Virus record (IMG/VR): IMGVR_UViG_3300007345_000047
Source: a virus
Reading direction: 5' to 3' (one strand)
Length of the DNA stretch: 55,706 nucleotides
In this document: positions 1 to 22,900 of the stretch, in pieces
Numbering within the stretch: the first letter of the stretch is position 1
Layout: each line of letters starts with the position of its first letter
Position numbers and translations under genes: made by a program
Notes under the pieces: model-generated
The model's database searches: none
What the model was told of the DNA's origin: nothing
What the model saw: only the letters and a program-made list of their open reading frames with translations

Positions 1-123
1 AGATCAGGGGGGTGCCCCCAGCAGCCAGCAGCAGCCAGCAGCCTGAGAGCCCCGCCAGGCGTGGCCTGTAGCCCTCCCAGCCAGCCACCAGCAGCCACCA
101 GCCAGCCCCGATCCGCTCCCAGC
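1..123. repeat. Terminal direct repeat / circularisation overlap, left copy
   Basis: Bases 1-123 recur exactly at 55584-55706, so the unit genome is 55583 bp. Confidence 0.95.
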
Positions 124-154
124 AGCCACCAGCCAGCCCCGATCCGCTCCCAGC
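93..154. repeat. Perfect tandem duplication of a 31-bp unit (agccaccagccagccccgatccgctcccagc)
   Basis: 93-123 equals 124-154, read directly. Confidence 0.95.
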
Positions 155-178
155 TGCTCCCAGCCACTGCGGCCACAG

Positions 179-227
<49 letters not shown>

Positions 228-426
228 TCGCGTTTTAAGGGAGCTGGGAGAGCTGCCAGCTGCCACCAGCAGCCCGCAGCGACCGACCAGTGTCTGACTG
301 ATGCCACAATCCCTGTAACAGACAACCATCAGACAACCCCAAGAGACACGCCACAAGCCCCATACCCTCTACCTCTATACCCCTTTATGTCTTAATGGGG
401 TATATAAGACATAGGCTACAGGCACA

Positions 427-447
427 GCTGCTGCTGCTGCTGCTGCT
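427..447. repeat. (GCT)7 trinucleotide microsatellite
   Basis: 7 uninterrupted gct units. Confidence 0.95.
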
Positions 448-597
448 ACAGCCCCAGCCACCAGCCCGCCCAGCTGGCGGTATACCCCCCTTCCGTCAGT
501 CATTCCAGACATCAGAATATTCCCAGTGTTTATGCGGGCTGTAGCCGGTCTGGCTCGGCACCCGTGTCTGGATGTGCCCGACACAGCAAATAATCGC

Positions 598-627
598 TTG
601 ACAGCGTAACGGATACGGGACTATGCT
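598..627 (+). promoter_or_regulatory. Sigma70-like early promoter candidate
   Basis: TTGACA (598-603), 18-bp spacer, TATGCT (622-627), just upstream of the first + strand start region. Confidence 0.4.
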
Positions 628-681
628 GCGAACGCAGCAACGGATTAACCAGCCCACAGGGCAAAACACAAGGAAAACGTA

Positions 682-768
682 ATGAATCAACAACTTAGAG
701 ACCACGGCATCAGCCTCCTGCTTATCGCAGCCCTTCTACTGGTACGCTTCGGAGGGGTCGCAGCATGA
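682..768 (+). CDS. Possible 28-aa hydrophobic leader peptide
   Basis: ATG 682 is preceded by ACAAGGA (668-674). The core is ISLLLIAALLLV. The TGA stop overlaps the ATG of the 765 gene (ATGA). Confidence 0.3.
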   Translation: MNQQLRDHGISLLLIAALLLVRFGGVAA

Positions 769-1532
769 ACGTACAATCACTGATAGCACGGGGCGCGATC
801 TTCTACTGCAGCACCAGCGGTGGCAAAGACAGTCAGGCGATGACAGCTCTTCTGGCACGCTTGATCCCTGCAGAGCAGCTGGTCTATGTGCACGCCAATC
901 TGGGTGAGGTCGAGTGGCACGGGGTGCAGGATCACATCAACGACACACTACCAGCCGGTGGTGAGCTAAACGTGGTCACGGCTAACTGGGCTGATGGCAC
1001 CGAGAAGACGCTGCTCGGCATGGTCGAGAATCGCGGTATGTGGCCGTCATCAGCCTACCGTCAGTGCACCAGCGACCTGAAGCGCAACCCGATCCAGAAG
1101 TTTATCCGCAGAGACCTGAAGGCACGCGGATCGAAGCTGGCCGTCAACTGCATGGGCATCCGATCCGAAGAATCCAAATCGAGAGCCAAGAACATCTCAG
1201 AGAAGTTCGTCGATGGCTGGAGGCTGGCCACTAAGGAGATGTGCGCGGCTGGCCGTGAAGTCTACGATTGGTATCCGCTCCACGACTGGTCAACTGAGAT
1301 GGTATTCGCCCAGATCAAGCGAGCTGGCCAGCAGCCACACTACGCATACGCCGAGGGCAACGAACGCCTAAGCTGCTGCTTCTGCATCATGGGCAGCAAA
1401 AACGACCTACGCAACGCCGCCCGTCTTCGCCCAGAGCTGGCAGCGAAGTACATCGCGCTGGAAGAGAAGATCGGCCACAGATTCACTGATAAGGCCACAC
1501 TGGCCGAACTGATAGCAACCGACGCGCAATAG
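765..1532 (+). CDS. PAPS reductase-like PP-loop ATP pyrophosphatase family protein
   Basis: N-terminal PP-loop FYCSTSGGKDSQAM and C-terminal Cys cluster ERLSCCFCIMG, typical of the PAPS reductase/DndC-like fold. Confidence 0.8.
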   Translation: MNVQSLIARGAIFYCSTSGGKDSQAMTALLARLIPAEQLVYVHANLGEVEWHGVQDHINDTLPAGGELNVVTANWADGTEKTLLGMVENRGMWPSSAYRQCTSDLKRNPIQKFIRRDLKARGSKLAVNCMGIRSEESKSRAKNISEKFVDGWRLATKEMCAAGREVYDWYPLHDWSTEMVFAQIKRAGQQPHYAYAEGNERLSCCFCIMGSKNDLRNAARLRPELAAKYIALEEKIGHRFTDKATLAELIATDAQ

Positions 1533-1592
1533 TCGAAACGGGGCGAGTCCCCGTCTGCAGGTCACGGCCTCCCTGCACTGATGAGACAGGCC
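1530..1592 (+). ncRNA. Type II hammerhead self-cleaving ribozyme, copy 1
   Basis: Order is UAGUC-GAAA, then stem III (ACGGGG/CCCCGU, loop CGAGU), then C1555 as cleavage site. Stem I follows (UGCAG 1556-1560 / CUGCA 1573-1577), then CUGAUGA (1578-1584), then GAC. The complete core is in the stem-II-open order. Confidence 0.85.
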
Positions 1593-1614
1593 AACAACTA
1601 CAAGGAATAAACGT

Positions 1615-2169
1615 ATGAACAAGTATCACTTCAATATTAAAGGATCAATGATCGACTCAGCCCGCGAGATACTAGGCGACCGAATGACAATGATCGGTAC
1701 GGGTGGAGGCTTCGATTATATTATGGTGCGATCCACCGAGAACCGTGACTTTGTGCTCTCCGGAGAGTGGTGCGATAGCTCGCCTGATTCGATGGATGAG
1801 TCCAGCAGCGTCTCGATCCAGAGGTGCAGCGCAGCAGAGTATGGCGAGTGGGATTGCGAGGGCTATGAGATCGCATTCGAGGGCACAGCCCAGCAGTGCC
1901 TGACATTTATGTCTATGCTCCCAGCTGTCTCTCTGGATGAGCGCAACGACGGCCTAGTGCGAGAGTTCGCCCAGATGTGCTCCGACCACTATCTGGAGAC
2001 GGGTGAAGACTTGCCCTATTCGACAGAGATGTTCGATGCCGACGGCACGAAGATCGTTAACCCGTGGATGGATGAGACCGGCAGATACCCCGTCGATCCC
2101 ACAGAGTACTACGGCATGGCATTCACAAAATGGTACGCGCCGACGCGAACCATTATGGGGAGTTTCTAA
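1615..2169 (+). CDS. Hypothetical protein (acidic)
   Basis: 184-aa ORF. The start is preceded by UACAAGGA (1599-1606). Confidence 0.6.
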   Translation: MNKYHFNIKGSMIDSAREILGDRMTMIGTGGGFDYIMVRSTENRDFVLSGEWCDSSPDSMDESSSVSIQRCSAAEYGEWDCEGYEIAFEGTAQQCLTFMSMLPAVSLDERNDGLVREFAQMCSDHYLETGEDLPYSTEMFDADGTKIVNPWMDETGRYPVDPTEYYGMAFTKWYAPTRTIMGSF

Positions 2170-2170
2170 T

Positions 2171-2356
2171 ATGAACCAGACTATATGGGTAACAATTGGG
2201 CATCAGTATGGGCGCGTCATCTACAAGCCAGCCAATGAGATCGCGAAGCTATTCGCAGATGTCGCTGGCACGCAGACTCTAACGCCCAATACCATCGCCC
2301 TGCTGAAGGCTGCAGGGTACACAATCAAAGTAGATCAACCGGAGGTGACAATATGA
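2171..2356 (+). CDS. Hypothetical protein (61 aa)
   Basis: ATG 2171 has GGGGAG 8 nt upstream. It is the in-frame tail of the listed ORF 2003..2356. Confidence 0.5.
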   Translation: MNQTIWVTIGHQYGRVIYKPANEIAKLFADVAGTQTLTPNTIALLKAAGYTIKVDQPEVTI

Positions 2357-2565
2357 TTATCGGAACTCTTATTGAAATGGCGCACACGTATGGCTTCCTC
2401 AATGCGGTAATGCTGCTGGCCGTGCTGGTCTGTCTCATTATCACGCTGATCGGGATGGTCACGGATCGCAGGGCTATGGAGCGGTTTCAGGCTGCGATGG
2501 CAACTAAGCGCGAGCAGCAGATGGTATGGGATCGCAACGAGTTCACAGATGAAATGATGAGTTGA
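2353..2565 (+). CDS. Small membrane protein
   Basis: GGAGG RBS and ATGA overlap with the upstream gene. One hydrophobic helix (FLNAVMLLAVLVCLIITLIGMV). Confidence 0.55.
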   Translation: MIIGTLIEMAHTYGFLNAVMLLAVLVCLIITLIGMVTDRRAMERFQAAMATKREQQMVWDRNEFTDEMMS

Positions 2566-2572
2566 GACTGTC

Positions 2573-2617
2573 GGTGACCTTCTAGCGAGGGTCACCCGCA
2601 GTAGCAATTCCGCTACT
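2573..2617 (+). promoter_or_regulatory. Conserved two-hairpin RNA motif, copy A
   Basis: Hairpin 1: GGTGACC-TTCTAGCGAG-GGTCACC (2573-2596). Hairpin 2: AGTAGC-AATTCC-GCTACT (2600-2617). The same architecture with different stem sequences occurs at 5344-5388. Confidence 0.5.
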
Positions 2618-2633
2618 TACAGGGAAACAAGTT

Positions 2634-3029
2634 ATGTCTAAGACAATTGAGCAGCAAATAGCAATAATCGAGAACGCATTAATGAGCCACTGCGAGGACT
2701 GTGTGAGCCGCCATGCAGAGCAGAGGCGAGTGGATAAAGCATTCGATGCACTCTGCAAACGGGCACTGCCATCAGGCCTGGCGAAAGCCTGGGACACAAA
2801 AAGCGAGCTCGAATTGACCGATCTATTAGAGTGGTACACCAGCGCAAATAGATTGCCGATGATGTCGGCAGATGAACTGCTTGCAGAGCTGCCAGACCTC
2901 GGGCTTACCGAGCGAGTGCAGGAATGCCACCGAGTGTGGCTGAACGCATTCTGTGAGGCGTGGGAGTTATTGGACGCGCCCAGCCAATCCGAAGAACTGA
3001 AGGCGGCCATACGCTGGATGAAGGTGTAG
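2634..3029 (+). CDS. Hypothetical protein
   Basis: 131-aa ORF. The start is preceded by UACAGGGA (2618-2625). Confidence 0.6.
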   Translation: MSKTIEQQIAIIENALMSHCEDCVSRHAEQRRVDKAFDALCKRALPSGLAKAWDTKSELELTDLLEWYTSANRLPMMSADELLAELPDLGLTERVQECHRVWLNAFCEAWELLDAPSQSEELKAAIRWMKV

Positions 3030-3094
3030 CCCAGACCGTCAATTAATGCTATAAAGCAATCCACACTCATTCATTTATTACAGGGAAAACAGTT

Positions 3095-3526
3095 ATGACA
3101 GCATTTACAGGTAAAATTGAAAACATCGAACGCATGGCCAGCAGCAGGAACGGCAACCCCCGCTACAAGTTCACCGTGGGCGGCCAGAGTGTCAAGCTGG
3201 CACCGGACAGCAGCTGGGGCTACTGCATCACCAACCTACGCAATCGCCACGTGACCGTAGAGGTCACGCCCCTACAGCATCTGGTTAAAAGCATCTGTGC
3301 TGCAGACCACTGGGAGGTCGAAGAGCTAGACGCATCTGGGGGATGGGAGAACAACTGGCACGATGAGACCGGCCAGCCCCAGACCTTCTCCACCAGAGGC
3401 GAAGCGCACGCAGAACTGGACGACCTGCTGGAGTCCGTGCAGCTGGCAGTGGCCGATGGTCACATGGCCGCAGAGTACAGCCGCGAAGATTACCGCGTAG
3501 TAATGGTCGGGGGGCGTGCAATATAG
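3095..3526 (+). CDS. Hypothetical protein
   Basis: 143-aa ORF. The start is preceded by UACAGGGA (3079-3086). Confidence 0.6.
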   Translation: MTAFTGKIENIERMASSRNGNPRYKFTVGGQSVKLAPDSSWGYCITNLRNRHVTVEVTPLQHLVKSICAADHWEVEELDASGGWENNWHDETGQPQTFSTRGEAHAELDDLLESVQLAVADGHMAAEYSREDYRVVMVGGRAI

Positions 3527-3586
3527 TCGAAACGGGGCGAGTCCCCGTCTGCAGATATCGGCCACCCTGCACTGATGAGACAGGCC
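3524..3586 (+). ncRNA. Type II hammerhead self-cleaving ribozyme, copy 2
   Basis: Same core and stems as copy 1: GAAAC 3529-3533, cleavage after C3549, CUGAUGA 3572-3578. It differs from copy 1 only at 4 loop-I positions. Confidence 0.85.
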
Positions 3587-3603
3587 ATTACACGGAGAAT
3601 GTT

Positions 3604-4332
3604 ATGAAGACAATCGAACTAATAGAACGCGCACCAATCTCGGAGGAGCTGAGAGCAGCCCTCCTTCCCGCAATAGCTAAGGCTGGCAAGTGGAGGGGGT
3701 CCCTGCTGGCCAACGCACCAGCCACCAATATCGCATGGCAGGTGCTGGTCGGTTTCGCTGCTCCAGCCCGCGTTAAGGTCTGGGGGATGATGGGCGAGAA
3801 CGCCGCACGATTCAATCACCTCGACGACCTAGCAGTGGCCAGCGGCATCAACTGGGCTAGAGCACTGAGCGCGACAGAGCCCTACGCACGCTGGAATGCC
3901 GATGGCCTAGATTTGGATCGCGATGCAATTCTGCGCGAGATCGAGCCGCACTTGCTACCAGCTAAGGCGACGGTAACTAAGAAGCGGGCGCATCCCTGCG
4001 TCGAGTTCCTAGATGTAGTGGCCGACGCACTGGCCGCTGGGTTCGGCGATATGCTGCACTTGGGGGAATTCAAAGACGATAGAGGCCATGACAAATTTAA
4101 GATAAAGCTGCTATGGGAGAACACTACTCTCAATGTGGTCATGGATAACAATGTGGCCGCGATCCGCGACCGTGCAGATCGCCTCGACCAGCAGATACGA
4201 GGTCATAAGGCCAAGGGAGAGGGCTCCACGCTAAAAGAGTACCGCAGGATGCGTAACTGGAAGCCCAGCTACAAAGTCGTGCCACTGAGCCCAGAGAGAG
4301 CCGCTGAGTGCGGCATGGAGATGGGGCTGTGA
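3604..4332 (+). CDS. Hypothetical protein
   Basis: 242-aa ORF. The start is preceded by UACACGGA (3589-3596). Confidence 0.6.
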   Translation: MKTIELIERAPISEELRAALLPAIAKAGKWRGSLLANAPATNIAWQVLVGFAAPARVKVWGMMGENAARFNHLDDLAVASGINWARALSATEPYARWNADGLDLDRDAILREIEPHLLPAKATVTKKRAHPCVEFLDVVADALAAGFGDMLHLGEFKDDRGHDKFKIKLLWENTTLNVVMDNNVAAIRDRADRLDQQIRGHKAKGEGSTLKEYRRMRNWKPSYKVVPLSPERAAECGMEMGL

Positions 4333-5333
4333 ACTACTATAACGAGTTCGACCCTTTCGCAGCCGCTTGGCTTGAAGAATTAATCAAAGACGGACTGATC
4401 CCAGCAGGGACAGTCGATCAGAGGAGCATTACCGATGTCAGACCCGAAGACCTTAAAGACTTTACCCAATGCCACTTTTTCGCAGGAATCGGCGGTTGGA
4501 GCTACGCACTCCAGCTTGCAGGATGGAGCCCCGATAGACCCGTCTGGACAGGATCACCCCCCTGCCAGCCTTTCTCAGTCGCAGGAAACCAAAAAGGTAA
4601 GGACGATCTTCGACACCTCTGGCCTGTCTTCTTCAATCTTATCCGCGAGTGTCAACCTGCAGTCGTTTTTGGTGAGCAGGTTGCCAGTGCGATTAGACAG
4701 TCTTGGTTCGACGATCTACAAACGGACATGGCGGCAGAAGGCTACGCCAGCGGATTGGCCGTACTGCCAGCTTGCAGCGTCGGTGCCCCGCACAAAAGGG
4801 AAAGACTCTTCTATGTCTCGGAGCGGATGGGCAACACCGAATACAATGGACGTACTGCCACTGAGGTCGGAAGAGGCTCTACGCAAGCAAGCGACAGGGG
4901 CGAGGAAGGGCAGGACGTTTCCAGCGAATCTACGGGAGCAGGTAGACCCTCGATCTCAGGAGATATACGCCGATGCGAGTTCTGTCCCCACGCCTACGAC
5001 GAAGAGCTTGGACGATACGGGTGCCCCAACTGTCTCGGTACAGGGTTGGACAACACCGAATACGCGGGACTGGAAGGACACAGCGGGGCAGTCAACGGAG
5101 GGGGAGGGCAACAGGCAGCGGATAGATCAAACGCCCAGGCAAGCGTTCCAGTTGATTGGAGCGATGTCTACTACCCCCGATTTAGGGACGGAAAATGCCG
5201 CCCAGTACCAACTGAATCCACGCTTTTCCCTTTGGCTCATGGGGTTCCCAACAGGGTGGGCATCCTGCGCGGAGCGGGTAACGCTATTGTCCCGCAAGTC
5301 GCAGCCGAAGTCATAAGGGCGTACATGGGCTGA
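4308..5333 (+). CDS. DNA (cytosine-5)-methyltransferase with internal zinc ribbon
   Basis: Motifs FAGIGG (I), PPCQPFS (IV), GEQV (VI), PHKRERLF (VIII), GAGNAIVPQV (X), plus CEFC-x12-CPNC. The start could instead be GTG 4329, which overlaps the upstream stop. Confidence 0.85.
   Translation: MRHGDGAVNYYNEFDPFAAAWLEELIKDGLIPAGTVDQRSITDVRPEDLKDFTQCHFFAGIGGWSYALQLAGWSPDRPVWTGSPPCQPFSVAGNQKGKDDLRHLWPVFFNLIRECQPAVVFGEQVASAIRQSWFDDLQTDMAAEGYASGLAVLPACSVGAPHKRERLFYVSERMGNTEYNGRTATEVGRGSTQASDRGEEGQDVSSESTGAGRPSISGDIRRCEFCPHAYDEELGRYGCPNCLGTGLDNTEYAGLEGHSGAVNGGGGQQAADRSNAQASVPVDWSDVYYPRFRDGKCRPVPTESTLFPLAHGVPNRVGILRGAGNAIVPQVAAEVIRAYMG
4435..5316 (+). other. 293-codon +1-frame ORF nested in the methyltransferase gene, with MTase-like motifs in its 3' half
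   Basis: Reads GWATPNTMD (4825-4851), GWTTPNTRDWKD (5044-5079) and LNPRFSLWLMGFPTGW (5212-5259). There is an in-frame ATG at 4813. The 5' part is low-complexity. Confidence 0.3.
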
Positions 5334-5343
5334 GAGCCTAACT

Positions 5344-5388
5344 GGGTAGTCTTCTCGCGAGGGCTACCCCTGATAGACTTTCCTATCA
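5344..5388 (+). promoter_or_regulatory. Conserved two-hairpin RNA motif, copy B
   Basis: Hairpin 1: GGGTAGTC-TTCTCGCGAG-GGCTACCC (5344-5369). Hairpin 2: TGATAG-ACTTTC-CTATCA (5371-5388). Confidence 0.5.
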
Positions 5389-5412
5389 ACTAGCATTTAC
5401 AAGGATAAAACT

Positions 5413-5802
5413 ATGAGCAATTACTTCTATAAATATAATGTGGCTCCGAAGGGTAAGAGAAGAGGCACCGTGAGATTCTTCAAAGCACTGTCGGACTGCA
5501 TCCAATTCGCAGAACTGCACGAGGGATCGCGACTAATGCACCGCAACCAAGTCGAGGGCGGCAGCGAGAGCCTGACCTGCACGCTCGACAGCCTGGATTC
5601 GGCCACACTAGGCACGTTCACCGACCGCGTGCAGCACGGATCGCGACCATCAGAACGGACAATCGATGTCTACGCGGAGGCGTACTCCTACGGATCGCAG
5701 GACAATGGCAAGCTGGTGGGTGTCATTTCCTGCTTTAAATTTGCCGACATCGATCAAATTCTAGCCACAAGGGGACTGTCCGATGTTATTTCTAACTCGT
5801 AA
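5413..5802 (+). CDS. Hypothetical protein
   Basis: 129-aa ORF. The start is preceded by UACAAGGAU (5398-5406). Confidence 0.6.
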   Translation: MSNYFYKYNVAPKGKRRGTVRFFKALSDCIQFAELHEGSRLMHRNQVEGGSESLTCTLDSLDSATLGTFTDRVQHGSRPSERTIDVYAEAYSYGSQDNGKLVGVISCFKFADIDQILATRGLSDVISNS

Positions 5803-5953
5803 GCCCCAACCAGGGCAGGATACAATACTCATAGGCGACAATATCCGCGTGGTTATACGCCGGATCGACGAGCACAATCAGGTACGGGTGGGCATCACAG
5901 CCCCGATAGAGATCAATATTGTCAGAGAGGAGATCGACAATCGTGGGAAATAA
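5783..5953 (+). CDS. csrA: CsrA/RsmA-family RNA-binding translational regulator homologue (56 aa)
   Basis: Not in the ORF track (too short). Own translation: MLFLTRKPQPGQDTILIGDNIRVVIRRIDEHNQVRVGITAPIEINIVREEIDNRGK. This aligns with CsrA MLILTRR..GE.L.IGD...V.V......QVR.G..AP....V.REEI. Confidence 0.8.
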   Translation: MLFLTRKPQPGQDTILIGDNIRVVIRRIDEHNQVRVGITAPIEINIVREEIDNRGK

Positions 5954-6140
5954 TCCGGATTACTACAGACTAGGCAACACCGTGTACGGTGCCAAGACGC
6001 GATGCAGTGACAGCCAGTGCGAGAGTAACTGCGTTTTTCCTGAGTGCTGCTGCGAGAAGAACGAGCATTCGACTGCAGCTGCAGCCGATAAAGCCGTGAA
6101 CTCTCTCAAGCTGCTGAAGAAGAAGGTCGAGATACTTTGA
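5943..6140 (+). CDS. Hypothetical Cys-rich small protein
   Basis: GTG 5943 has GAGGAG upstream; the track start is TTG 5919. The start is uncertain. Confidence 0.4.
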   Translation: MGNNPDYYRLGNTVYGAKTRCSDSQCESNCVFPECCCEKNEHSTAAAADKAVNSLKLLKKKVEIL

Positions 6141-6340
6141 TCTTCAAGCTGGCACGGGTGATCTTCGATGTCGTAGTGTTAACTACATCGAGCCCGTGCT
6201 CGCCGGAAATGGTACACTATCTACCATACGAGCCCGCCAATCCAGGGATAGTTAAGCTGGACGCACTACCAGATGGCGGGTGCATTATCCGATATAAGAC
6301 AGTGGACTTTAAGTTACCCGAAGACTGGGTGGGAGTATAA
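6137..6340 (+). CDS. Hypothetical protein
   Basis: ORF with a TTG start overlapping the upstream stop. Weak support. Confidence 0.3.
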   Translation: MIFKLARVIFDVVVLTTSSPCSPEMVHYLPYEPANPGIVKLDALPDGGCIIRYKTVDFKLPEDWVGV

Positions 6341-6341
6341 G

Positions 6342-6515
6342 ATGGCTAAGTCAGCAAGAGATAGAATGGCAGAGATGAGGGTGCGGCAGAAGGAGCTGGG
6401 GCGTAACAGTCGCCAGCTGTGGTTGACACCCTTCGAGGAGAACGAACTAAAAGTGCTGCTTGAGATATTACGAAGTGGCTCCGAGGTACGCGATCCCCAA
6501 GCCGACGATAGTTAG
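6342..6515 (+). CDS. Hypothetical small basic protein (57 aa)
   Basis: ATG 6342 lies directly after the previous stop. Sequence begins MAKSARDRMAEMRVRQKELGRNSRQLWLTPFEENELKVLLEILR. Confidence 0.45.
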   Translation: MAKSARDRMAEMRVRQKELGRNSRQLWLTPFEENELKVLLEILRSGSEVRDPQADDS

Positions 6516-6791
6516 AATCACTCCGATCCCCCACTTACCTACCCGAGTAGCACCGAGTAACTGGCCTTGCTGCTCGTGGTAGACCTTCACGAACTCCCGC
6601 ATATCCTCCGAATGCTTGCCTAAAGTGTGATTGATCTCGGTATGACGCGCAACAGCGTCCTTATTCATGGCTCGGAACTCCTGAGTGTGCTGGTTGAGAC
6701 GCTGCTCGTGTACCTCCGCAACCGTCTCAAGATGGCTGAGTCTTTTAGCGTGATCATCTTGTTTTTTCCATAATGCGGCAGCTTCTGGCAT
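6468..6791 (-). CDS. Tail-anchored coiled-coil membrane protein (XhlA-like from memory; possibly lysis-associated)
   Basis: Helical N-terminal part (RLSHLETVAEVHEQRLNQH) and a single C-terminal TM helix (WGIGVILTIVGLGIAYLG). Confidence 0.5.
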   Translation of the reverse strand: MPEAAALWKKQDDHAKRLSHLETVAEVHEQRLNQHTQEFRAMNKDAVARHTEINHTLGKHSEDMREFVKVYHEQQGQLLGATRVGKWGIGVILTIVGLGIAYLGATS

Positions 6792-6983
6792 AGCACGGGT
6801 CTCGGTTACATGAACAGTTTAACTAATTATCGCATTCGGAGGCTTGCTTTGTCACGCGGGGGATGCGTAGGATAGAGGGTACTCTCAAGCGATACGTGGG
6901 GTATCGCTGAGAATAGTCAAGGCATTCAACGGTTCGCCTCTTCACCAGGCTACTCAGCTGGGGACGAAATTACTGAGTTCTAG

Positions 6984-7008
6984 GGGATCCTTCGGGATCC
7001 CTTTTTTT
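6984..7008 (+). terminator. Rho-independent terminator, + strand orientation
   Basis: GGGATCC-TTCG-GGATCCC followed by seven T. In the - direction no U-tract follows the hairpin. Confidence 0.75.
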
Positions 7009-7216
7009 ATTTCCCGTACCGCTCGGTAACTACCTGCCGCAGCCACTCTATCAAGATCAGTGGCCACAGTGTGGTCCAAGCGAAGCAAACTAGGACGATT
7101 CCCAGCTCACCGTGCGCGTCATCTTCGGGCGCGAACGTGTTCAGTACGAATACGCACATCGCAAACAGCAGCCCGAAGCCAAGGTACAGCCCCAGCATAT
7201 CAATTACGACCATCAA
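7007..7216 (-). CDS. Small two-TM membrane protein (holin-like by topology only)
   Basis: 69 aa with two hydrophobic helices and a charged C-terminus. Confidence 0.5.
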   Translation of the reverse strand: MMVVIDMLGLYLGFGLLFAMCVFVLNTFAPEDDAHGELGIVLVCFAWTTLWPLILIEWLRQVVTERYGK

Positions 7217-7490
7217 GTTGTGGACCCTCCGCTTTACTTAGTCTTTCAGATATTAGGTTAGCATACCCAGCGATGTCCTCCCAGCTATCTAGGCAGTTGA
7301 TATCTCCGCAGCAGAGCCGTGCGATCTTAGTGGCGATCAGGTCCAGGCTATGCTTCTGCATCGACAGCCCCAGCTTATCGGGGAAGTTCATTGCTATCAC
7401 GGCCTTGAGGTCTTCTGCCATCTCGGCAGTGTCCTTATAGTCACCGTGCGTGCTTTCTCGTTGGTTCAGCACCTCGTGTTGGTAATCCAT
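7200..7490 (-). CDS. Conserved phage small protein (DUF6378-like from memory)
   Basis: 96-aa ORF containing STHGDY...IATKIARL...DSWEDIAGYA. Confidence 0.55.
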   Translation of the reverse strand: MDYQHEVLNQRESTHGDYKDTAEMAEDLKAVIAMNFPDKLGLSMQKHSLDLIATKIARLCCGDINCLDSWEDIAGYANLISERLSKAEGPQLDGRN

Positions 7491-7499
7491 GTCACTCTC

Positions 7500-8714
7500 C
7501 TACGCTATTTTATAGTCAACTTCGTGTTTTGGACGGGGTAATTCGTAAATCAGAGTAGAGTGCCGCCCGCCTTCTCTCTTGAATACTACCATCTGCATCG
7601 CCTGGATCGAGCTGTAGCCATTACTGGCATGCCAGCTGTCCGGTGGGGGTAACGCTGCAAACTTCTGAACGTAACAGCCGTCCAATTCTTTAACATCCTG
7701 ATGGTGGAAGTGACCCAGAGCCCACATACGGCTAGTAGTTCTGCCCCAGGCTTCGGCCATATCTCTGGCCATGACAGTGACCAGCTTCTCCGGCTTCATC
7801 TTGTCGCCGTGATTAATTCCGATCAGCCACTCGCCCCACTCTAGGTAGTGGAAGTAACCGTGTGTATCTAGGATAGTTACGCGGGGCTCATTGTGATAGA
7901 AGGCAGCGAGGATACGTTGGATCGCCAGTGCCACGTCAGGGTTGTGATTACCACGAGCAATTACTACCACTACTTTCTTAAATTTTCCGAGCATGGCCTC
8001 AATGCCGTGCCGCATACCCATCGCGGCCACATCCATAGTCCTGCCGTGCCGTGTGTCTACATCAACGGGGGTGCCCGCGAAGGTAGCATTCAGGCTGGAG
8101 TTACTGTGAGTGTAGTCACCGACATCGACCAGTAGTCCGGTCTCACACTGGGGAGCACGCTCGACCAGGTCGTCGATCGCAGCTGTCATATTGTCGTATG
8201 CAGTCTGGCTGTCGAAGTTGGAGTGCTTAGTCTCCTGCCCGTGAGCATACATCCCGTAGTGCGAGTCTCCTATAAAGATGCCAGCCATAAGATTCTTGTC
8301 GAACTTATCAGTCTTCTTCAGCTTGGGCTTTTTCTTGGCCGGATTGATGTCGAGGATAAGATTATCGACAAAGCCTTCGAGCTGCTTCTCCAGTGCTAGT
8401 TTATCGGGTGAGGCTTTGAGCCAGATCGGCTCGCCGTCAGGGGTCTTGGTTAGCATGGAGTACCCGCGATTCAGCTGGAAGCCTGGAGCTACCTTGCTGG
8501 ACATATCGTAGTCTGGGAAGACTCCACCCAGTGCGGCACGCTTTGCGACCTTAGACTTCATGGATACTATGGTTTCAGGGAACTCTAGCCCCAGCTTCTT
8601 AGCTGCAGCTGCAGCGGTTCCGGTCTCAATCCAAGCCTCAAGGCACTTGCGTTGATGGTCGGTATTACAGAACTCTAGTATCGCGGGATCAGGGGGTGCG
8701 GCTCTCATATACAT
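7500..8714 (-). CDS. Calcineurin-like metallophosphoesterase with N-terminal HTH-like region
   Basis: Motifs IGDSHYG, DVGDYTH, RGNHNPD and GHFHH, in the canonical order. Confidence 0.75.
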   Translation of the reverse strand: MYMRAAPPDPAILEFCNTDHQRKCLEAWIETGTAAAAAKKLGLEFPETIVSMKSKVAKRAALGGVFPDYDMSSKVAPGFQLNRGYSMLTKTPDGEPIWLKASPDKLALEKQLEGFVDNLILDINPAKKKPKLKKTDKFDKNLMAGIFIGDSHYGMYAHGQETKHSNFDSQTAYDNMTAAIDDLVERAPQCETGLLVDVGDYTHSNSSLNATFAGTPVDVDTRHGRTMDVAAMGMRHGIEAMLGKFKKVVVVIARGNHNPDVALAIQRILAAFYHNEPRVTILDTHGYFHYLEWGEWLIGINHGDKMKPEKLVTVMARDMAEAWGRTTSRMWALGHFHHQDVKELDGCYVQKFAALPPPDSWHASNGYSSIQAMQMVVFKREGGRHSTLIYELPRPKHEVDYKIA

Positions 8715-8744
8715 ATCCTTCTGGTTGTGGAACGACTTATTCTA

Positions 8745-9083
8745 TCACGTAATTAGTTGAATTCTCGGCGAATCTGGGCTCTCGTCCACAGAAGGTGCCA
8801 TGTCTAGGGGCTCTGGGAGGTCTAGCTCCTTACATACGCGACTGAATACTTGGTCTATACTGAGGCCACGGTACGTGTCAGTCAGCCCCAGAGCCATGAT
8901 TCCAGACGCATCCTTGTACATCCAGCCGATCACTCGGTAGATCATACGGATGTACTCGTCGGATAACTCCGCGTGGTTTAGTACCTTCTCGATGTTTTCA
9001 AAAGGTATCGGATCCGAAGGAACGCCGTCCTCTCGCAAGACCTCTTTGTTTATCCAGTCCTGCACTATCTCTAGGTGGCTCAT
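8745..9083 (-). CDS. Hypothetical protein
   Basis: 112-aa ORF, co-directional and tightly packed with its neighbours. Confidence 0.6.
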   Translation of the reverse strand: MSHLEIVQDWINKEVLREDGVPSDPIPFENIEKVLNHAELSDEYIRMIYRVIGWMYKDASGIMALGLTDTYRGLSIDQVFSRVCKELDLPEPLDMAPSVDESPDSPRIQLIT

Positions 9084-9610
9084 ATAGTTAACTCCTCGTA
9101 TCGGTATAAGAATAAGTCCTTCGAATCGTGGCCGACTGGCAACGGGTGATCGTGTGGCTGTGCGAACGGGAACCTCTCCTCGTACAGCGCATCTATCTCT
9201 GGGCTACGCGCACACAGTCTCAGTCTCTCGGTGACCAGGGCACGCACGTCTGCTTTCTTGACGTTCTCATTGAGCACGGGTGCTAGGTCAAACTTCTGAC
9301 AGATGGCAAGCCAGATGCCCTGCTCGAAGTGCCGGATCTGCGGGATCATTTCCTTCATGGGAGTGACAGTGTCACCCACATACGCTTCGGCTGCGTCGTG
9401 CATCAGAGCAGATAACTTAGTGTTCCTGTTCCCCTGCACTATCCAAGAGCAGTACACGCTGTGCGCTGCTACTGAGTAAGGCTGGCTGGTAGCACCGTTG
9501 AACCTATTAATGTGGGATAGATGGTGCGCGATGTCCTCGATGCAGATCGCATCCTGCAAGGGCATGGCCAGGTCTAGTATCTTCCCGCTGTGCGTGGCTA
9601 TTTTACTCAT
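9080..9610 (-). CDS. HD-domain phosphohydrolase (YfbR-type 5'-nucleotidase-like)
   Basis: Motifs IAHHLSHINRFNG and LMHDAAEAYVGD. The start is taken at ATG 9610 (MSKIATH, GGAG RBS) rather than track start 9700. Confidence 0.75.
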   Translation of the reverse strand: MSKIATHSGKILDLAMPLQDAICIEDIAHHLSHINRFNGATSQPYSVAAHSVYCSWIVQGNRNTKLSALMHDAAEAYVGDTVTPMKEMIPQIRHFEQGIWLAICQKFDLAPVLNENVKKADVRALVTERLRLCARSPEIDALYEERFPFAQPHDHPLPVGHDSKDLFLYRYEELTI

Positions 9611-9755
9611 TGTCTTTCTCCAGTGCTTTCTCGTACTTCTTTTTCGCAGCCACATAAGCATAAGCAGCATCAGCAGCAGCAGCATAAGAATCAGCACCAA
9701 TCCAGACCTTGTACTTCTCTTCCATGTCTTTCTTTAGTTCTTCTAAGTTACTCAT
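9603..9755 (-). CDS. Small paralogous-array protein (50 aa)
   Basis: Own translation: MSNLEELKKDMEEKYKVWIGADSYAAAADAAYAYVAAKKKYEKALEKDNE. It is paralogous to the N-terminus of the 10857..11222 product. ATGAGTAA junctions occur at both ends. Confidence 0.5.
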   Translation of the reverse strand: MSNLEELKKDMEEKYKVWIGADSYAAAADAAYAYVAAKKKYEKALEKDNE

Positions 9756-19583: not shown

Positions 19584-19889
19584 ATGACCCGCCTAAGACT
19601 AGACCCTGAAGTCAGGAAAGAAAACATTATACAGTCGGCACTCGCCGTCTCAAGAAAGGATGGCCTAACCAGAGTCACCCGCAAAACTGTGGCCGAGCAC
19701 GCCGGCATAGCAGAGGGGCTGGTGTCCCACTACTACAACACAATGAACCAGCTGCGGAGAGATGTTGCGAGACGCGCAATGGCAGATGAAGATCCCGTCC
19801 TCCTCTCTATGATGCTGTCGGATCCCAAGCTGAAGAAGAGGCTAGACCCTCGCCACAAAGAGATCGCCATTAACCACCTACAGGGATAA
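19584..19889 (+). CDS. TetR-type HTH DNA-binding protein (HTH domain only, 101 aa)
   Basis: RKENIIQSALAVSRKDGLTRVTRKTVAEHAGIAEGLVSHYY matches the TetR N-terminal HTH pattern. Confidence 0.65.
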   Translation: MTRLRLDPEVRKENIIQSALAVSRKDGLTRVTRKTVAEHAGIAEGLVSHYYNTMNQLRRDVARRAMADEDPVLLSMMLSDPKLKKRLDPRHKEIAINHLQG

Positions 19890-19892
19890 ACC

Positions 19893-22319
19893 ATGCAGTA
19901 CTTACCGAGATCATTTGCAGGACTCGGTAGCTACCCGCAGTTTATACTGTGTCAGATTGCCCAGAAGAAGGGCAAGTCTATAAAGCTACCGCTAGATCAT
20001 CGAACAATGAACGCTGGCAATCCTCACGACCGCGCCATCTGGATGAGTTTCGATGAAGTTAAAAACAAGATGGCCAAGCTGGGATCAGAGTATGCCGTCG
20101 GATTCGTATTCACCGAGGAAGATCCGTTCTTCTTTCTCGACATCGACAAGTGTATAGATGCGGAGACGGGTGAGCTCAATGAGATCGCCACGTATCTGGT
20201 GTCTGCATTTCCAGGTGCTGCAGTAGAACGCTCGCAGTCTGGCATAGGCTTGCACATTTTCGGGACAGGCCACTGCCCAGACCACAGCTGTAAGAATATA
20301 CCGCTGGGCATAGAGCTGTACACGCAAGAGAGATTTGTGATGTTGACCGGCGACGACGCGACCGGAGACATACGACTGGATTGCACCCTGCCTCTTGAGG
20401 TTATTGTCGATGCGTATTTCACACCCAGTGAGAGCGGCGACGACGGAGAGTGGAATGACTTCCCTCACCCAGACTGGAGTGGACCAGAAGATGACGACGT
20501 TCTAATCTCCAAAGCTATGGGTGCGAGGAGTGCCAGCTCCGTGTTCAATGGCCGCGCCACTTTCCGAGATCTATTTGAAGCGAATGAGGTGGTGCTCGCA
20601 GCAGCTTACCCCGACCAGGGGGGCAGAGAGTACGACGCTAGTTCTGCAGACGCAGCACTGGCACAGCACTTAGCCTTCTGGACAGGCAACAATCACGAGC
20701 GGATCCAGCGCATCATGGAGAAGTCCATGCTGGTGAGAGAGAAGTGGGAAGACCGAGGCAACTACTACCTGCCCATGACTATCCGCAAAGCTACCTCTCG
20801 TCAGACAGAGTTCTACAGTTCCGGCCACAAGCCCAAGCCCACCACCACTGCATCACCTAGTCACACTTCGACAGCCCCCTCCTTCCCTGGCGCACCCAGC
20901 ACTATGAAAGGTAAGGCCGTCGAGGGCGTAGCCTTCATGGGGGTGGAGGAGCAGGTACGACACTTCGATGGGTGTGTGTACATCCGAGACCTGCACAGAA
21001 TTTTTGTACCCAGCGGAGCATTCTTAAACACCGAGAGGTTCAGGGCGACCTACGGTGGATACGCATTCGCTATGGATGCCACAGCTTCCTCGACATCTAA
21101 GAATGCGTGGGAGGTGTTCACTGAGTCTCAGGCGTATCGATTCCCTAAAGTAGACGGACACTTCTTCCGTCCACTCGACGCGCCTGGTCAGATAACAGAA
21201 GATGAAGGACGGACTTATGTCAACACCTACATCCCAATCACCACGCCCCGTGTTGCGGGGGACGCAACACCCTTCACAGATCTTGTTGCAAAGATACTTC
21301 CAGACGAAAGAGACCGAGCCATTCTTATGGCCTACCTCGCAGGAGTTGTCCAGTATCCAGGCACAAAATTCCAGTACTGCTGCGTTCTGCAAGGCACAGA
21401 GGGAAACGGTAAAAGCACACTTCTCCGAGCTGTTGAGTATGCTGTCGGCAAGAGGTACACCCACCAGCCCAATAGTGGTGAGCTTGCCAGAGGTGGAGGT
21501 AAGTTCACGGGTTGGCTTGATGGCAAGCTATTCATTGGAGTGGAAGAGATCCATGTCCCGAATAAACCAGGGGGGCTGCTCGACTCGTTGAAGCCACTGC
21601 TCACCAACACTCGGATCGAGCTGCAAGCTAAGGGTCAAGACCAAGCGATGGGCGACAACGTGGCGAACTGGTTGCTGCTATGTAATAGAAAAGATGACGT
21701 GCCCCTGACCTTAGACGGCAGAAGATACTGCGTGCTATTCAGCCAGCAGCAATCACACGCCGACTGTCTGGCCAGTGGGATGACCGACGCATACTGGTCT
21801 GGGTTCTGGAACTGGATCAAGAAAGAGAACGGCTTTGCAATTATCAACAACTACTTGCAAGAGTTTAAGATCCAAGACGAGTTCAATCCTTCTATGATCT
21901 CTCGTGCACCATCTACCACTGTGACAGAAGAGGCCATCGACTTAACCAAGACTGACCTAGAGCAGCTGCTACAGCTTGCGATCAGTGAGGAGAGGTGTGG
22001 GTTTGCTGGGGGCTGGGTGTCATCGACACTACTGCACGAGCTATTCCAAGACCACAACCTATACCTGCCCTACAATAAGACTCGGATATTCATGCAGTCC
22101 CAGGGCTACGACTGGCACCCTGCGATGGCGAGTACAGGAGGCAAGGCATCTCGGAAAGTATCAGCTGAAGGAGCCAGACCGACGCTGTACGTGCAGCGGG
22201 AGCACATGGCCGCTAGTCACACAAATGCCCCCGCTGCCACGTCAGCCTACGAGAAGGCGCAGGGATATCAACTATCACCAGAGTCAGCATTTGCTCTAGG
22301 AGCTAATTATGCGTTATGA
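19893..22319 (+). CDS. Primase-polymerase / D5-P4-type helicase fusion
   Basis: N-terminal prim-pol-like FFFLDIDKC and GIGLHIFG. Walker A VLQGTEGNGKSTLL in the C-terminal half. Confidence 0.8.
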   Translation: MQYLPRSFAGLGSYPQFILCQIAQKKGKSIKLPLDHRTMNAGNPHDRAIWMSFDEVKNKMAKLGSEYAVGFVFTEEDPFFFLDIDKCIDAETGELNEIATYLVSAFPGAAVERSQSGIGLHIFGTGHCPDHSCKNIPLGIELYTQERFVMLTGDDATGDIRLDCTLPLEVIVDAYFTPSESGDDGEWNDFPHPDWSGPEDDDVLISKAMGARSASSVFNGRATFRDLFEANEVVLAAAYPDQGGREYDASSADAALAQHLAFWTGNNHERIQRIMEKSMLVREKWEDRGNYYLPMTIRKATSRQTEFYSSGHKPKPTTTASPSHTSTAPSFPGAPSTMKGKAVEGVAFMGVEEQVRHFDGCVYIRDLHRIFVPSGAFLNTERFRATYGGYAFAMDATASSTSKNAWEVFTESQAYRFPKVDGHFFRPLDAPGQITEDEGRTYVNTYIPITTPRVAGDATPFTDLVAKILPDERDRAILMAYLAGVVQYPGTKFQYCCVLQGTEGNGKSTLLRAVEYAVGKRYTHQPNSGELARGGGKFTGWLDGKLFIGVEEIHVPNKPGGLLDSLKPLLTNTRIELQAKGQDQAMGDNVANWLLLCNRKDDVPLTLDGRRYCVLFSQQQSHADCLASGMTDAYWSGFWNWIKKENGFAIINNYLQEFKIQDEFNPSMISRAPSTTVTEEAIDLTKTDLEQLLQLAISEERCGFAGGWVSSTLLHELFQDHNLYLPYNKTRIFMQSQGYDWHPAMASTGGKASRKVSAEGARPTLYVQREHMAASHTNAPAATSAYEKAQGYQLSPESAFALGANYAL

Positions 22320-22734
22320 AGTTGTAGACAAACTAGCCAAAGTGTTATTCAAGAAACATGCGGATCAGCAAGATTGGGAGGTGCTCGACTGGGAGCTGAT
22401 GTCCACATCGCAACGTCTGCACTGGAGAGACGAGGCGCAGCGGAAGCTGGACTCGGGCTTTGCGGGTTTCAACAGCGATTGGGCAAGGGAGATGGTGTGT
22501 GATTCGTTTACCAAGAACAAGCACAACCACTACTACAAAGACGTGAGCAAGCTCCAGAGCATCGATGTCTACAGGGTGCTGAGTCTGTTCAATGTGAGTG
22601 ACCCGTGTATACAGCACGCCACTAAGAAGCTGCTCGTGGCCGGTGGCCGCGGTGCTGGCAAAGATATAACCCAAGACATACAAGAAGCCATCGACTCACT
22701 AGAGCGGTGGAAGGAGATGCAGATTGAAAGCTAA
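22309..22734 (+). CDS. Hypothetical protein (DUF3310-like from memory)
   Basis: 141-aa ORF with HYYKDV...IDVYRVL...HATKKLL. Confidence 0.5.
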   Translation: MRYEVVDKLAKVLFKKHADQQDWEVLDWELMSTSQRLHWRDEAQRKLDSGFAGFNSDWAREMVCDSFTKNKHNHYYKDVSKLQSIDVYRVLSLFNVSDPCIQHATKKLLVAGGRGAGKDITQDIQEAIDSLERWKEMQIES

Positions 22735-22739: not shown

Positions 22740-22900
22740 ACTTAGAATGGGGTCTCCACATGAACTGTGCGCTACCCAACTGTGATAGGAAAGTTACTTC
22801 GGTCGCCACTGTGTGCGCCGAGTGTACGCACGCTATTCGAGACCGGATCGCGGAAGAGATGCGAGCCGAACGACTAAAGGAGATGCAGATTGAAAGCTAA
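22724..22900 (+). CDS. Small CxxC...CxxC zinc-finger protein
   Basis: TTG 22724 lies behind the duplicated AAGGAG RBS (or ATG 22760). Reads NCALPNCDRK...CAECTH and ends KEMQIES like the upstream gene. Confidence 0.4.
   Translation: MKAKDNLEWGLHMNCALPNCDRKVTSVATVCAECTHAIRDRIAEEMRAERLKEMQIES

Follow-up and report, generated by a model that had tools for sequence, protein, structure and literature searches.

Many targets of the RNA-binding protein CsrA carry two or more binding sites. The site itself is well defined: the consensus obtained by SELEX (the systematic evolution of ligands through exponential enrichment) is RUACARGGAUGU, in which the ACA and GGA blocks are 100% conserved, and structures of RsmE-RNA complexes show contacts to the A and to the GGA, together with a variable N (PMC7652899). 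In E. coli, CsrA represses hfq through a single site lying over the Shine-Dalgarno sequence (Baker 2007, cited in PMC7652899). Members of the family are also found on mobile elements, including RsmQ, a plasmid-borne translational regulator of pQBR103 (PMC9928087), and gp28 of phage PTXU04, where knock-down of csrA resulted in smaller plaques; according to that functional-genomics paper of 2025, what CsrA does in a phage's life cycle had not been put to the test before (PMC11879866). Two further phage systems are relevant here, namely the T4 protein RegA, which represses translation of about 30 early and middle mRNAs, and the clustered type II hammerhead ribozymes located between genes of phages and prophages, which are thought to cut long transcripts into gene-length mRNAs (Perreault et al. 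2011, PMC3088659). Here we analyse the 55,706-nucleotide (nt) viral sequence IMGVR_UViG_3300007345_000047 of IMG/VR (the whole stretch is called the window below), where a recurrent start cassette with an ACA-N-GGA core precedes genes of a putative early operon that also encodes a CsrA homologue. The motif is a well-supported sequence observation, and its interpretation as a CsrA site is plausible but unproven.

The six early start regions in which a preliminary description of this DNA had noted the motif were all recovered at the same coordinates by direct reading and by a pattern search, and the spacing of 7-8 nt between GGA and ATG was found at every site it quoted, including the copy ahead of csrA. 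All copies are on the + strand. Start cassette 1 (661-684) is composed of ACAAGGA (668-674), the spacer AAACGUA and the ATG (682) of a small open reading frame (ORF) of 28 amino acids (aa), which is conserved as a hydrophobic peptide in a 77% relative (L001) whose first leader reads AUCAAGGAUACUGAUUAUG. Cassette 2 (1598-1617; CUACAAGGAAUAAACGU-AUG) carries TACAAGGA at 1599-1606 and leads into a 184-aa gene (ATG 1615), and cassette 3 (2617-2636; UUACAGGGAAACAAGUU-AUG) carries TACAGGGA at 2618-2625 ahead of a 131-aa gene (ATG 2634). The same TACAGGGA is found at 3079-3086 in cassette 4 (3078-3097; UUACAGGGAAAACAGUU-AUG; 143-aa gene, ATG 3095), which is 90% identical to cassette 3 over 20 nt. Cassette 5 (3588-3606; UUACACGGAGAAUGUU-AUG) has TACACGGA at 3589-3596 and precedes a 242-aa gene (ATG 3604), and cassette 6 (5397-5415; UUACAAGGAUAAAACU-AUG) has TACAAGGAT at 5398-5406 and precedes a 129-aa gene (ATG 5413) that overlaps csrA. 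The motif had been described as absent from the starts read in the other three transcription blocks; its early bias is indeed strong, but a seventh copy (19879-19895; UACAGGGAUAAACC-AUG), with TACAGGGA at 19879-19886, heads an 808-aa primase/helicase gene, standing 6 nt ahead of ATG 19893 and within the 3' end of the upstream ORF.

When the copies are aligned on GGA they read UUACA-R/C-GGA-(A/U/G)-A-rich-(G)U(U)-AUG, with a cassette consensus of about 20 nt, UUACA-R-GGA-(A/U)AAAMNGUU-AUG; we use UUACANGGA as shorthand for leaders of this type. The shared element is therefore longer than the 8 nt originally proposed, and the motif forms the 5' part of a cassette that follows hammerheads or hairpins. 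ACA and GGA are invariant in all seven copies, the N between them being A, A, G, G, C, A and G, respectively, and the distance from GGA to ATG across the seven is 6-8 nt, so that the element overlaps the Shine-Dalgarno and initiation region. As a separate observation, UUUACAGGUAAAA at 3108-3120 (+), 14 nt inside the gene that starts at 3095, nearly repeats the leader of this gene, UUACAGGGAAAA, with GGU replacing GGA.

Across the whole genome ACARGGA is not enriched (12 found versus 14.4 expected), and only positional tests are therefore meaningful. Seven of the 27 ACANGGA copies on both strands fall within -20 to -4 of a start codon, the other 20 being scattered in coding sequence; for the longer form TACANGGA the figure is 6 of 10. 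The comparison with non-early genes that the preliminary description had called for bore it out: ACANGGA is present at 6/14 early starts and at 1/52 others (Fisher p = 0.0002), and TACANGGA at 5/14 and 1/52, respectively (p = 0.0012). A non-coding gap of at least 65 nt precedes six of the early genes, and all of these have the motif (6/6), as compared to 0 of about 10 gap-preceded genes in the other blocks; the 8 early genes overlapping or abutting a neighbouring gene have GGAG or GGGG starts. In an outside control, consisting of other phage and metagenome loci (about 2 Mb together), ACANGGA was found at 2.1% and TACANGGA at 0.6% of GGA-type starts, and no unrelated locus had more than 2 motif starts. 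The motif class at early gap-preceded starts is thus real and specific, and its enrichment is positional only.

We further compared the 7 motif starts with the 35 other GGA-type starts of the same genome. The other starts do use a different Shine-Dalgarno sequence, as had been claimed: GGAG is found in 24 of the 35, as compared to 1 of the 7 motif sites (p = 0.012). The predicted duplex with the standard anti-Shine-Dalgarno does not differ significantly (-5.4 kcal/mol for motif starts versus -6.1 for the others). The motif leaders are less structured (-2.7 versus -6.5 kcal/mol over -30 to +20, p = 0.005) and more AU-rich (0.62 versus 0.54, p = 0.013). Judging by the known anti-Shine-Dalgarno sequence, pairing with the standard 16S 3' tail cannot account for the UAC upstream of the Shine-Dalgarno.

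Examination of the gaps ahead of the cassettes revealed structured RNAs, including two hammerhead ribozymes upstream of motif copies that the earlier account of these leaders, correct as to the motifs, had missed. Ribozyme 1 (1531-1595, +) matches the type II family RF02276 of Rfam with 38.1 bits against a gathering score of 37, and ribozyme 2 (3525-3589, +) matches it with 32.2 bits (E = 0.0016), below that score; the two constitute a 65-nt repeat with 94% identity. Their 5' ends overlap stop codons (TAG 1530-1532, of a phosphoadenosine phosphosulfate (PAPS) reductase-like gene, and TAG 3524-3526, respectively), cassette 2 begins 3 nt past ribozyme 1, and cassette 5 overlaps the final bases of ribozyme 2. 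Both have the catalytic core GUCGAAAC ... GUC^U ... CUGAUGAG, and cleavage is predicted after C1555 and C3549. Stems I and III are loop-closed and stem II is open, and an alignment of 20 sequences, for which 17 hammerheads were taken from other viral contigs, shows compensatory changes in 13 of 16 pairs. In both ribozymes GGCC of loop I can form a pseudoknot with GGCC of the 3' tail, and the two segments covary among relatives (GAUC/GAUC, GGUU/AACC, CGCG/CGCG). Stem III of ribozyme 2 is also compensated in L094, a 7.2-kb contig of a strain variant (CCGGA/UCCGG versus CGGGG/CCCCG), and the same hammerhead arrangement, with 5-6 copies each, is found in the viral contigs L083, L088 and L089.

Cassettes 3 and 6 are preceded by double hairpins on the + strand. 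The one at 2567-2616 (fold z = -3.1) is made of a long hairpin (2567-2602) and a small one, GUAGC-AAUUCC-GCUAC (2601-2616); the relative L103 retains the outer stem (ACUGU/GCAGU) and the small hairpin and has another inner hairpin. The other, at 5344-5388 (z = -2.3), comprises hairpins at 5344-5369 and 5371-5388. Neither matched an Rfam family at E<=5, and they could be sites for RNase III or other processing, or stabilising elements. Every gap-preceded unit after a ribozyme or double hairpin thus has the shared start cassette directly 3' of a structured RNA, and the operon looks like a processed polycistron, with the same start cassette after each processing or structural element.

The csrA homologue (5783-5953, +; 56 aa) is the 11th gene of the operon and overlaps the upstream gene by 20 nt. 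That it is a genuine member of the CsrA family, as the preliminary description had supposed, is supported by a match of residues 1-54 to Pfam PF02599 (55.1 bits, cut-off 27) and by matches to the PDB chains 1Y00, 2BTI and 2JPP (E from 1e-6 to 5e-5). Alanine scanning has shown that strand beta1 (L2, L4, R6) and the beta5/helix region (V40, V42, R44, E45, E46, I47; E. coli numbering) are important for RNA binding by CsrA. The phage protein is identical to E. coli CsrA (1Y00, compared over residues 1-54) at L2, L4, T5, R6, R44, E45, E46 and I47, with R7 replaced by K and V40 and V42 by I; the R44A mutant has been cited in support of a role of R44 in RNA binding (PMC7652899). Ahead of csrA itself, within the upstream coding sequence, stands ACAAGGGGA (5767-5775, +; csrA ATG 5783).

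Relatives in which the fate of the cassette could be followed are few. IMG/VR contributed only one fragment with 99% identity (L081) and a 77% relative, L001/L097, which is truncated and without most of the operon, and a metagenome scan returned mostly contigs of 1-5 kb. With CsrA or the 143-aa protein as the query, protein searches yielded almost nothing close, and scans for the leader pattern gave either about the number of matches expected by chance, all of them unrelated, or none. Three are informative, namely L094, L103 and L001, whose first leader is given above. L094 is 83% identical to the window around the fourth leader, yet carries UUACAAGGAAAACAAGUUAUG there, and its cassette 6 is identical to that of the window; in L103 the PAPS-reductase protein is only 60% identical and CGCAGUAGCAAUCUCGCUAC-UUACAAGGAAAAAAGUUAUG (small hairpin plus cassette 3) is kept. 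ACA and GGA are invariant in the nine sequences made up of the seven window copies and the L094 and L103 copies, with A, G or C as N. The cassette has thus been kept despite diverged flanks and is under selection within this lineage, and it is not general to the wider group. Relative to window positions 2239-9611, L094 is without the gene at 2634-3029, has an extra 54-aa gene ahead of the methylase, and carries a chimeric, 128-aa version of the gene at 3095-3526 (N-terminal 64 aa 72% identical, C-terminus different). These breakpoints lie at intergenic modules, and the early region is therefore mosaic.

Among about 190 phage loci compared, only this lineage has both csrA and at least 5 motif starts. 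Two sequences provide weak, independent hints for CsrA recognition of such starts. An 878-nt farmland contig from ENA (L096) contains four small back-to-back genes, including a CsrA 63% identical to that of the phage, and A-C-GGA precedes all four of their starts (e.g. AACACGGAAGGAA); the csrA gene of a prophage (L196) is preceded by ACAGGGAAG. One more csrA locus, L082, belongs to an unrelated prophage and is disrupted.

The invariance pattern of the phage sites (ACA and GGA fixed, N free) matches the pattern of CsrA recognition. The preliminary description had quoted the SELEX-derived consensus correctly (PMC7652899) and had concluded that the early Shine-Dalgarno sequences look like CsrA sites; this stands as far as the ACA-N-GGA core is concerned, which is there in 7/7 copies, and not for the 3' UGU or for presentation in a hairpin loop. 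The reading that we favour is that the cassettes are CsrA-type operators on leader-bearing early cistrons, through which the CsrA of the same operon would exert feedback or a shut-off, and we put its probability at roughly 45%; that CsrA binds, in which direction it regulates and when it does so are what we infer here. In this scheme the cassette GGA would serve as the Shine-Dalgarno core, with ACA-N-GGA being the CsrA/Rsm recognition core as well. The CsrA homologue, whose gene stands near the end of this operon, would bind the single-stranded cassettes, and host CsrA, if the host has one, could bind them likewise. Binding would compete with the 30S subunit, so that early translation would come under negative feedback or be shut off in a timed manner; translationally coupled downstream genes would be co-repressed, and hammerhead cleavage would allow each unit to be controlled and degraded separately. 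Such self-regulation of early translation by the operon's CsrA is plausible but unproven. The more far-reaching proposal, in which a phage-encoded CsrA serves a lytic phage as a RegA-like switch and shuts down hammerhead-cut units that each have an ACA-N-GGA operator, the primase gene too, seems to us rather doubtful.

Several observations weigh against a CsrA function of the cassettes. No leader has UGU or GU directly after GGA, and no stable hairpin presenting GGA in its loop is predicted (leaders z about +0.5 versus shuffles); weak AC...GU pairings over 9-11-nt loops are possible in 5/7 copies. Within -60 to +40, 5/7 leaders have a single GGA; the other two (682 and 1615) have a second ANGGA, which for cassette 1 is ACGGA at 641-645, 27 nt upstream, the distance that a dimer can bridge being about 10-63 nt. 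No other initiation regions of the genome are as open and as AU-rich as the motif leaders, and these features are expected of a ribosome-binding site that is simply efficient. The whole 20-nt cassette is conserved and some copies look duplicated, so that the seven sites are not independent events, and the seventh (19879) is outside the early operon. The claim that csrA too is preceded by the motif holds for the window, but ACAAGGGGA reads GCAAAGGAG in L094, and the motif copy ahead of csrA is therefore not conserved. More distant relatives of the operon, some with hammerheads at the same position, have ordinary Shine-Dalgarno sequences, and the searches described above found no relative that could test joint gain or loss of the motif and csrA. 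A general link between phage csrA and ACANGGA was rejected, as the planctomycete-type prophage L196 has csrA and plain AAGGA/GGAG starts.

The main rival explanation is a generic, efficient ribosome-binding cassette (an AU-rich tract for S1, a short Shine-Dalgarno sequence and an A-rich spacer) whose match to ACA-N-GGA is coincidental. Duplication and recombination would have spread it together with the intergenic modules (a hammerhead or hairpin and the leader), and CsrA would act on host mRNAs only. We regard this as a real possibility, though not as our first choice. The low structure (p = 0.005) and high AU content (p = 0.013) of the leaders relative to other starts fit it well, and so do the 90% identity of cassettes 3 and 4 over 20 nt, the 94% identity of the hammerhead modules, and the gene loss and chimeric gene of L094 with their breakpoints at intergenic modules. 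The absence of both hairpin-loop and dual-site architecture points in the same direction, as do the ordinary Shine-Dalgarno sequences that come right after the same hammerhead in other phages. Efficiency, however, should keep or strengthen GGAG, and yet GGAG is depleted (1/7 versus 24/35). Moreover, the leaders after the near-identical hammerheads have diverged (AACAACUACAAGGAAUAAACGU versus AUUACACGGAGAAUGUU) and both keep UACANGGA; the upstream triplet is, of 64 possibilities, precisely ACA, in a genome that encodes CsrA; and ACANGGA is present at only about 2% of starts in other phages.

The cassette could also be the operator of another factor, either an early phage protein similar to T4 RegA or a host RNase or toxin recognising ACA-containing single-stranded RNA. 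Most of the early proteins are ORFans without an assigned function, and the A-rich tract and GUUAUG that make up the cassette's 3' half are reminiscent of the unstructured RegA operator obtained by SELEX, AAAAUUGUUAUGUAA (PMC3014915). This likeness, though, consists of general features of AU-rich start regions, and Pfam and PHROGs revealed among the early proteins neither a RegA homologue nor any RNA-binding family other than CsrA. We consider another factor improbable. Less probable still is a sponge, i.e. abundant early transcripts whose six or seven CsrA sites titrate host CsrA in the manner of CsrB/RsmZ and reprogram host metabolism. Several ACANGGA sites on one highly expressed transcript would suit this role, and antagonism of CsrA by multi-site RNAs is established (PMC7652899), but known sponges have many closely spaced GGA hairpins, whereas the phage sites are about 0.5-2 kb apart, on ribosome-binding sites that ribosomes must use, and outside hairpin loops; the phage's own CsrA would counteract the titration, and the idea presumes that the host has a CsrA. 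Finally, chance recurrence without shared function might be suggested by the genome-wide ACARGGA count, which is at expectation, but is effectively refuted by the enrichment at early starts, by the 2-Mb control and by the counts at gap-preceded genes, and the motif has been kept in L094 and L103 despite the divergence of the flanks. A role of the motif as a promoter element was likewise rejected, there being no sigma70-like match at any leader and a single promoter at 598-627.

That promoter, TTGACA-18-TATGCT (598-627, +), agrees with the sigma70 consensus at 10/12 positions and is the sole strong + strand match ahead of the early operon, with none of equal quality in 1-7500. A terminator-like hairpin followed by a T-run (6982-7003, +) is the likely end of the early transcript, and no internal terminator-like site was found within the + strand block at about 635-6500. 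The operon in this block appears, from these signals, to be transcribed as a single sigma70-driven mRNA. Its products are a PAPS-reductase-like protein, a C5 DNA methylase, the CsrA homologue and about 10 ORFans, and calling the block "early" is a reasonable inference from the one sigma70-like promoter and the ORFan gene content. Pfam recognises the methylase (4329-5333) over residues 81-177 only. A segment of about 200 nt of its gene, coding for a Cys-rich stretch, lies between 27-nt direct repeats (4825-4851 and 5044-5070), and the region 4825-5070 is shorter or different in L081, which is elsewhere 99% identical. Upstream of the promoter, the 600 nt at 1-600 are non-coding and contain CAG/CTG-type repeats, including (GCT)16 at 178-225, (GCT)7 at 427-447 and 2.5 copies of a 31-nt unit at 88-166, which stand on both sides of an AT-rich palindromic core (about 360-420); the layout is the same in L001 (about 1500-2000). 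This region is possibly an origin, a packaging site or a genome-end region.

The window, which is contig Ga0070754_10000237 of JGI 3300006810, is a complete phage genome of about 55.7 kb with a G+C content of 53%, and three other assemblies hold near-identical genomes of about 55.7 kb that differ in circular permutation. By its gene content the source is an uncultured podovirus-like phage, with virion genes for tail tubular proteins, a head-tail adaptor and a 2841-aa virion protein, and replication genes for a DNA polymerase and the primase/helicase. No tRNA was found in the window, and no phage RNA polymerase was recognised among its large proteins. The consecutive genes starting at 22724 and 22890 (+) have near-identical TTG start regions, AAGGAGAUGCAGA-UUGAAA (22709-22729 and 22875-22895), suggestive of a tandem duplication. 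The terminase is nearest to those of two Synechococcus phages (45% aa identity), the primase to gammaproteobacterial phages (42-45%), and CsrA to homologues of Planctomycetota (55-63%) followed by Lysobacterales (46-48%).

If the favoured reading, in which the cassettes are operators for the phage's own CsrA, holds true, this locus would represent a CsrA-based analogue of T4 RegA that combines ribozyme processing with protein-mediated translational control. The more far-reaching version, with CsrA as a RegA-like switch, would amount to a self-contained circuit for post-transcriptional timing, and the early leaders would be the first targets assigned to a phage-encoded CsrA. Should the CsrA interpretation be refuted, the motif would still clearly exemplify a ribosome-binding cassette that is standard in one lineage and spreads along with intergenic modules. 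Although the phage is uncultured, the proposal can be tested directly in vitro, since it involves a defined 7-nt core, a 56-aa protein and short RNAs.

Taken singly, CsrA sites that cover a Shine-Dalgarno sequence, csrA genes in phages and clusters of phage hammerheads are already known, whereas a phage whose own early leaders have the CsrA core, with csrA in the operon to which they belong, is not known to have been described. With the operators of CsrA and RsmA/RsmE (E. coli glgC, cstA and hfq; Pseudomonas hcnA) the phage sites share the ACA-N-GGA core and the use of GGA as Shine-Dalgarno sequence, and they stand 7-8 nt ahead of AUG, where a bound protein would exclude the 30S subunit. They differ in having neither the AC/GU-closed hexaloop nor the UGU and, mostly, no second site, and in that the candidate targets are here phage early cistrons and the putative regulator is phage-encoded. 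As in other phages, the hammerheads lie between genes, just upstream of the next ribosome-binding site, and have the pseudoknot between loop I and the 3' tail; the ribozymes themselves are nothing new, but it is the UACANGGA cassette that follows them here and an ordinary Shine-Dalgarno sequence in those phages. The likeness to T4 RegA consists in a small early phage protein that would bind many unstructured, A-rich initiation regions of early phage mRNAs and turn them off, and in the 3' half of the cassette; the protein here has the CsrA fold and not the RegA fold, and the proposed element lies upstream, over the Shine-Dalgarno sequence, while that of RegA lies over the AUG. Last, a CsrA-family gene on a phage or plasmid is common to this genome and to the mobile-element systems of RsmQ, PTXU04 gp28 and the phi297 type; csrA is annotated in 15 phage database records (including the "carbon storage regulator" of Pseudomonas phage phi297 type), to which the CsrA of the window is 41-53% identical. 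Those proteins are read as manipulating host mRNAs, as is usually assumed for CsrA of phages and plasmids, whereas here the candidate targets are the early leaders of the phage's own operon.

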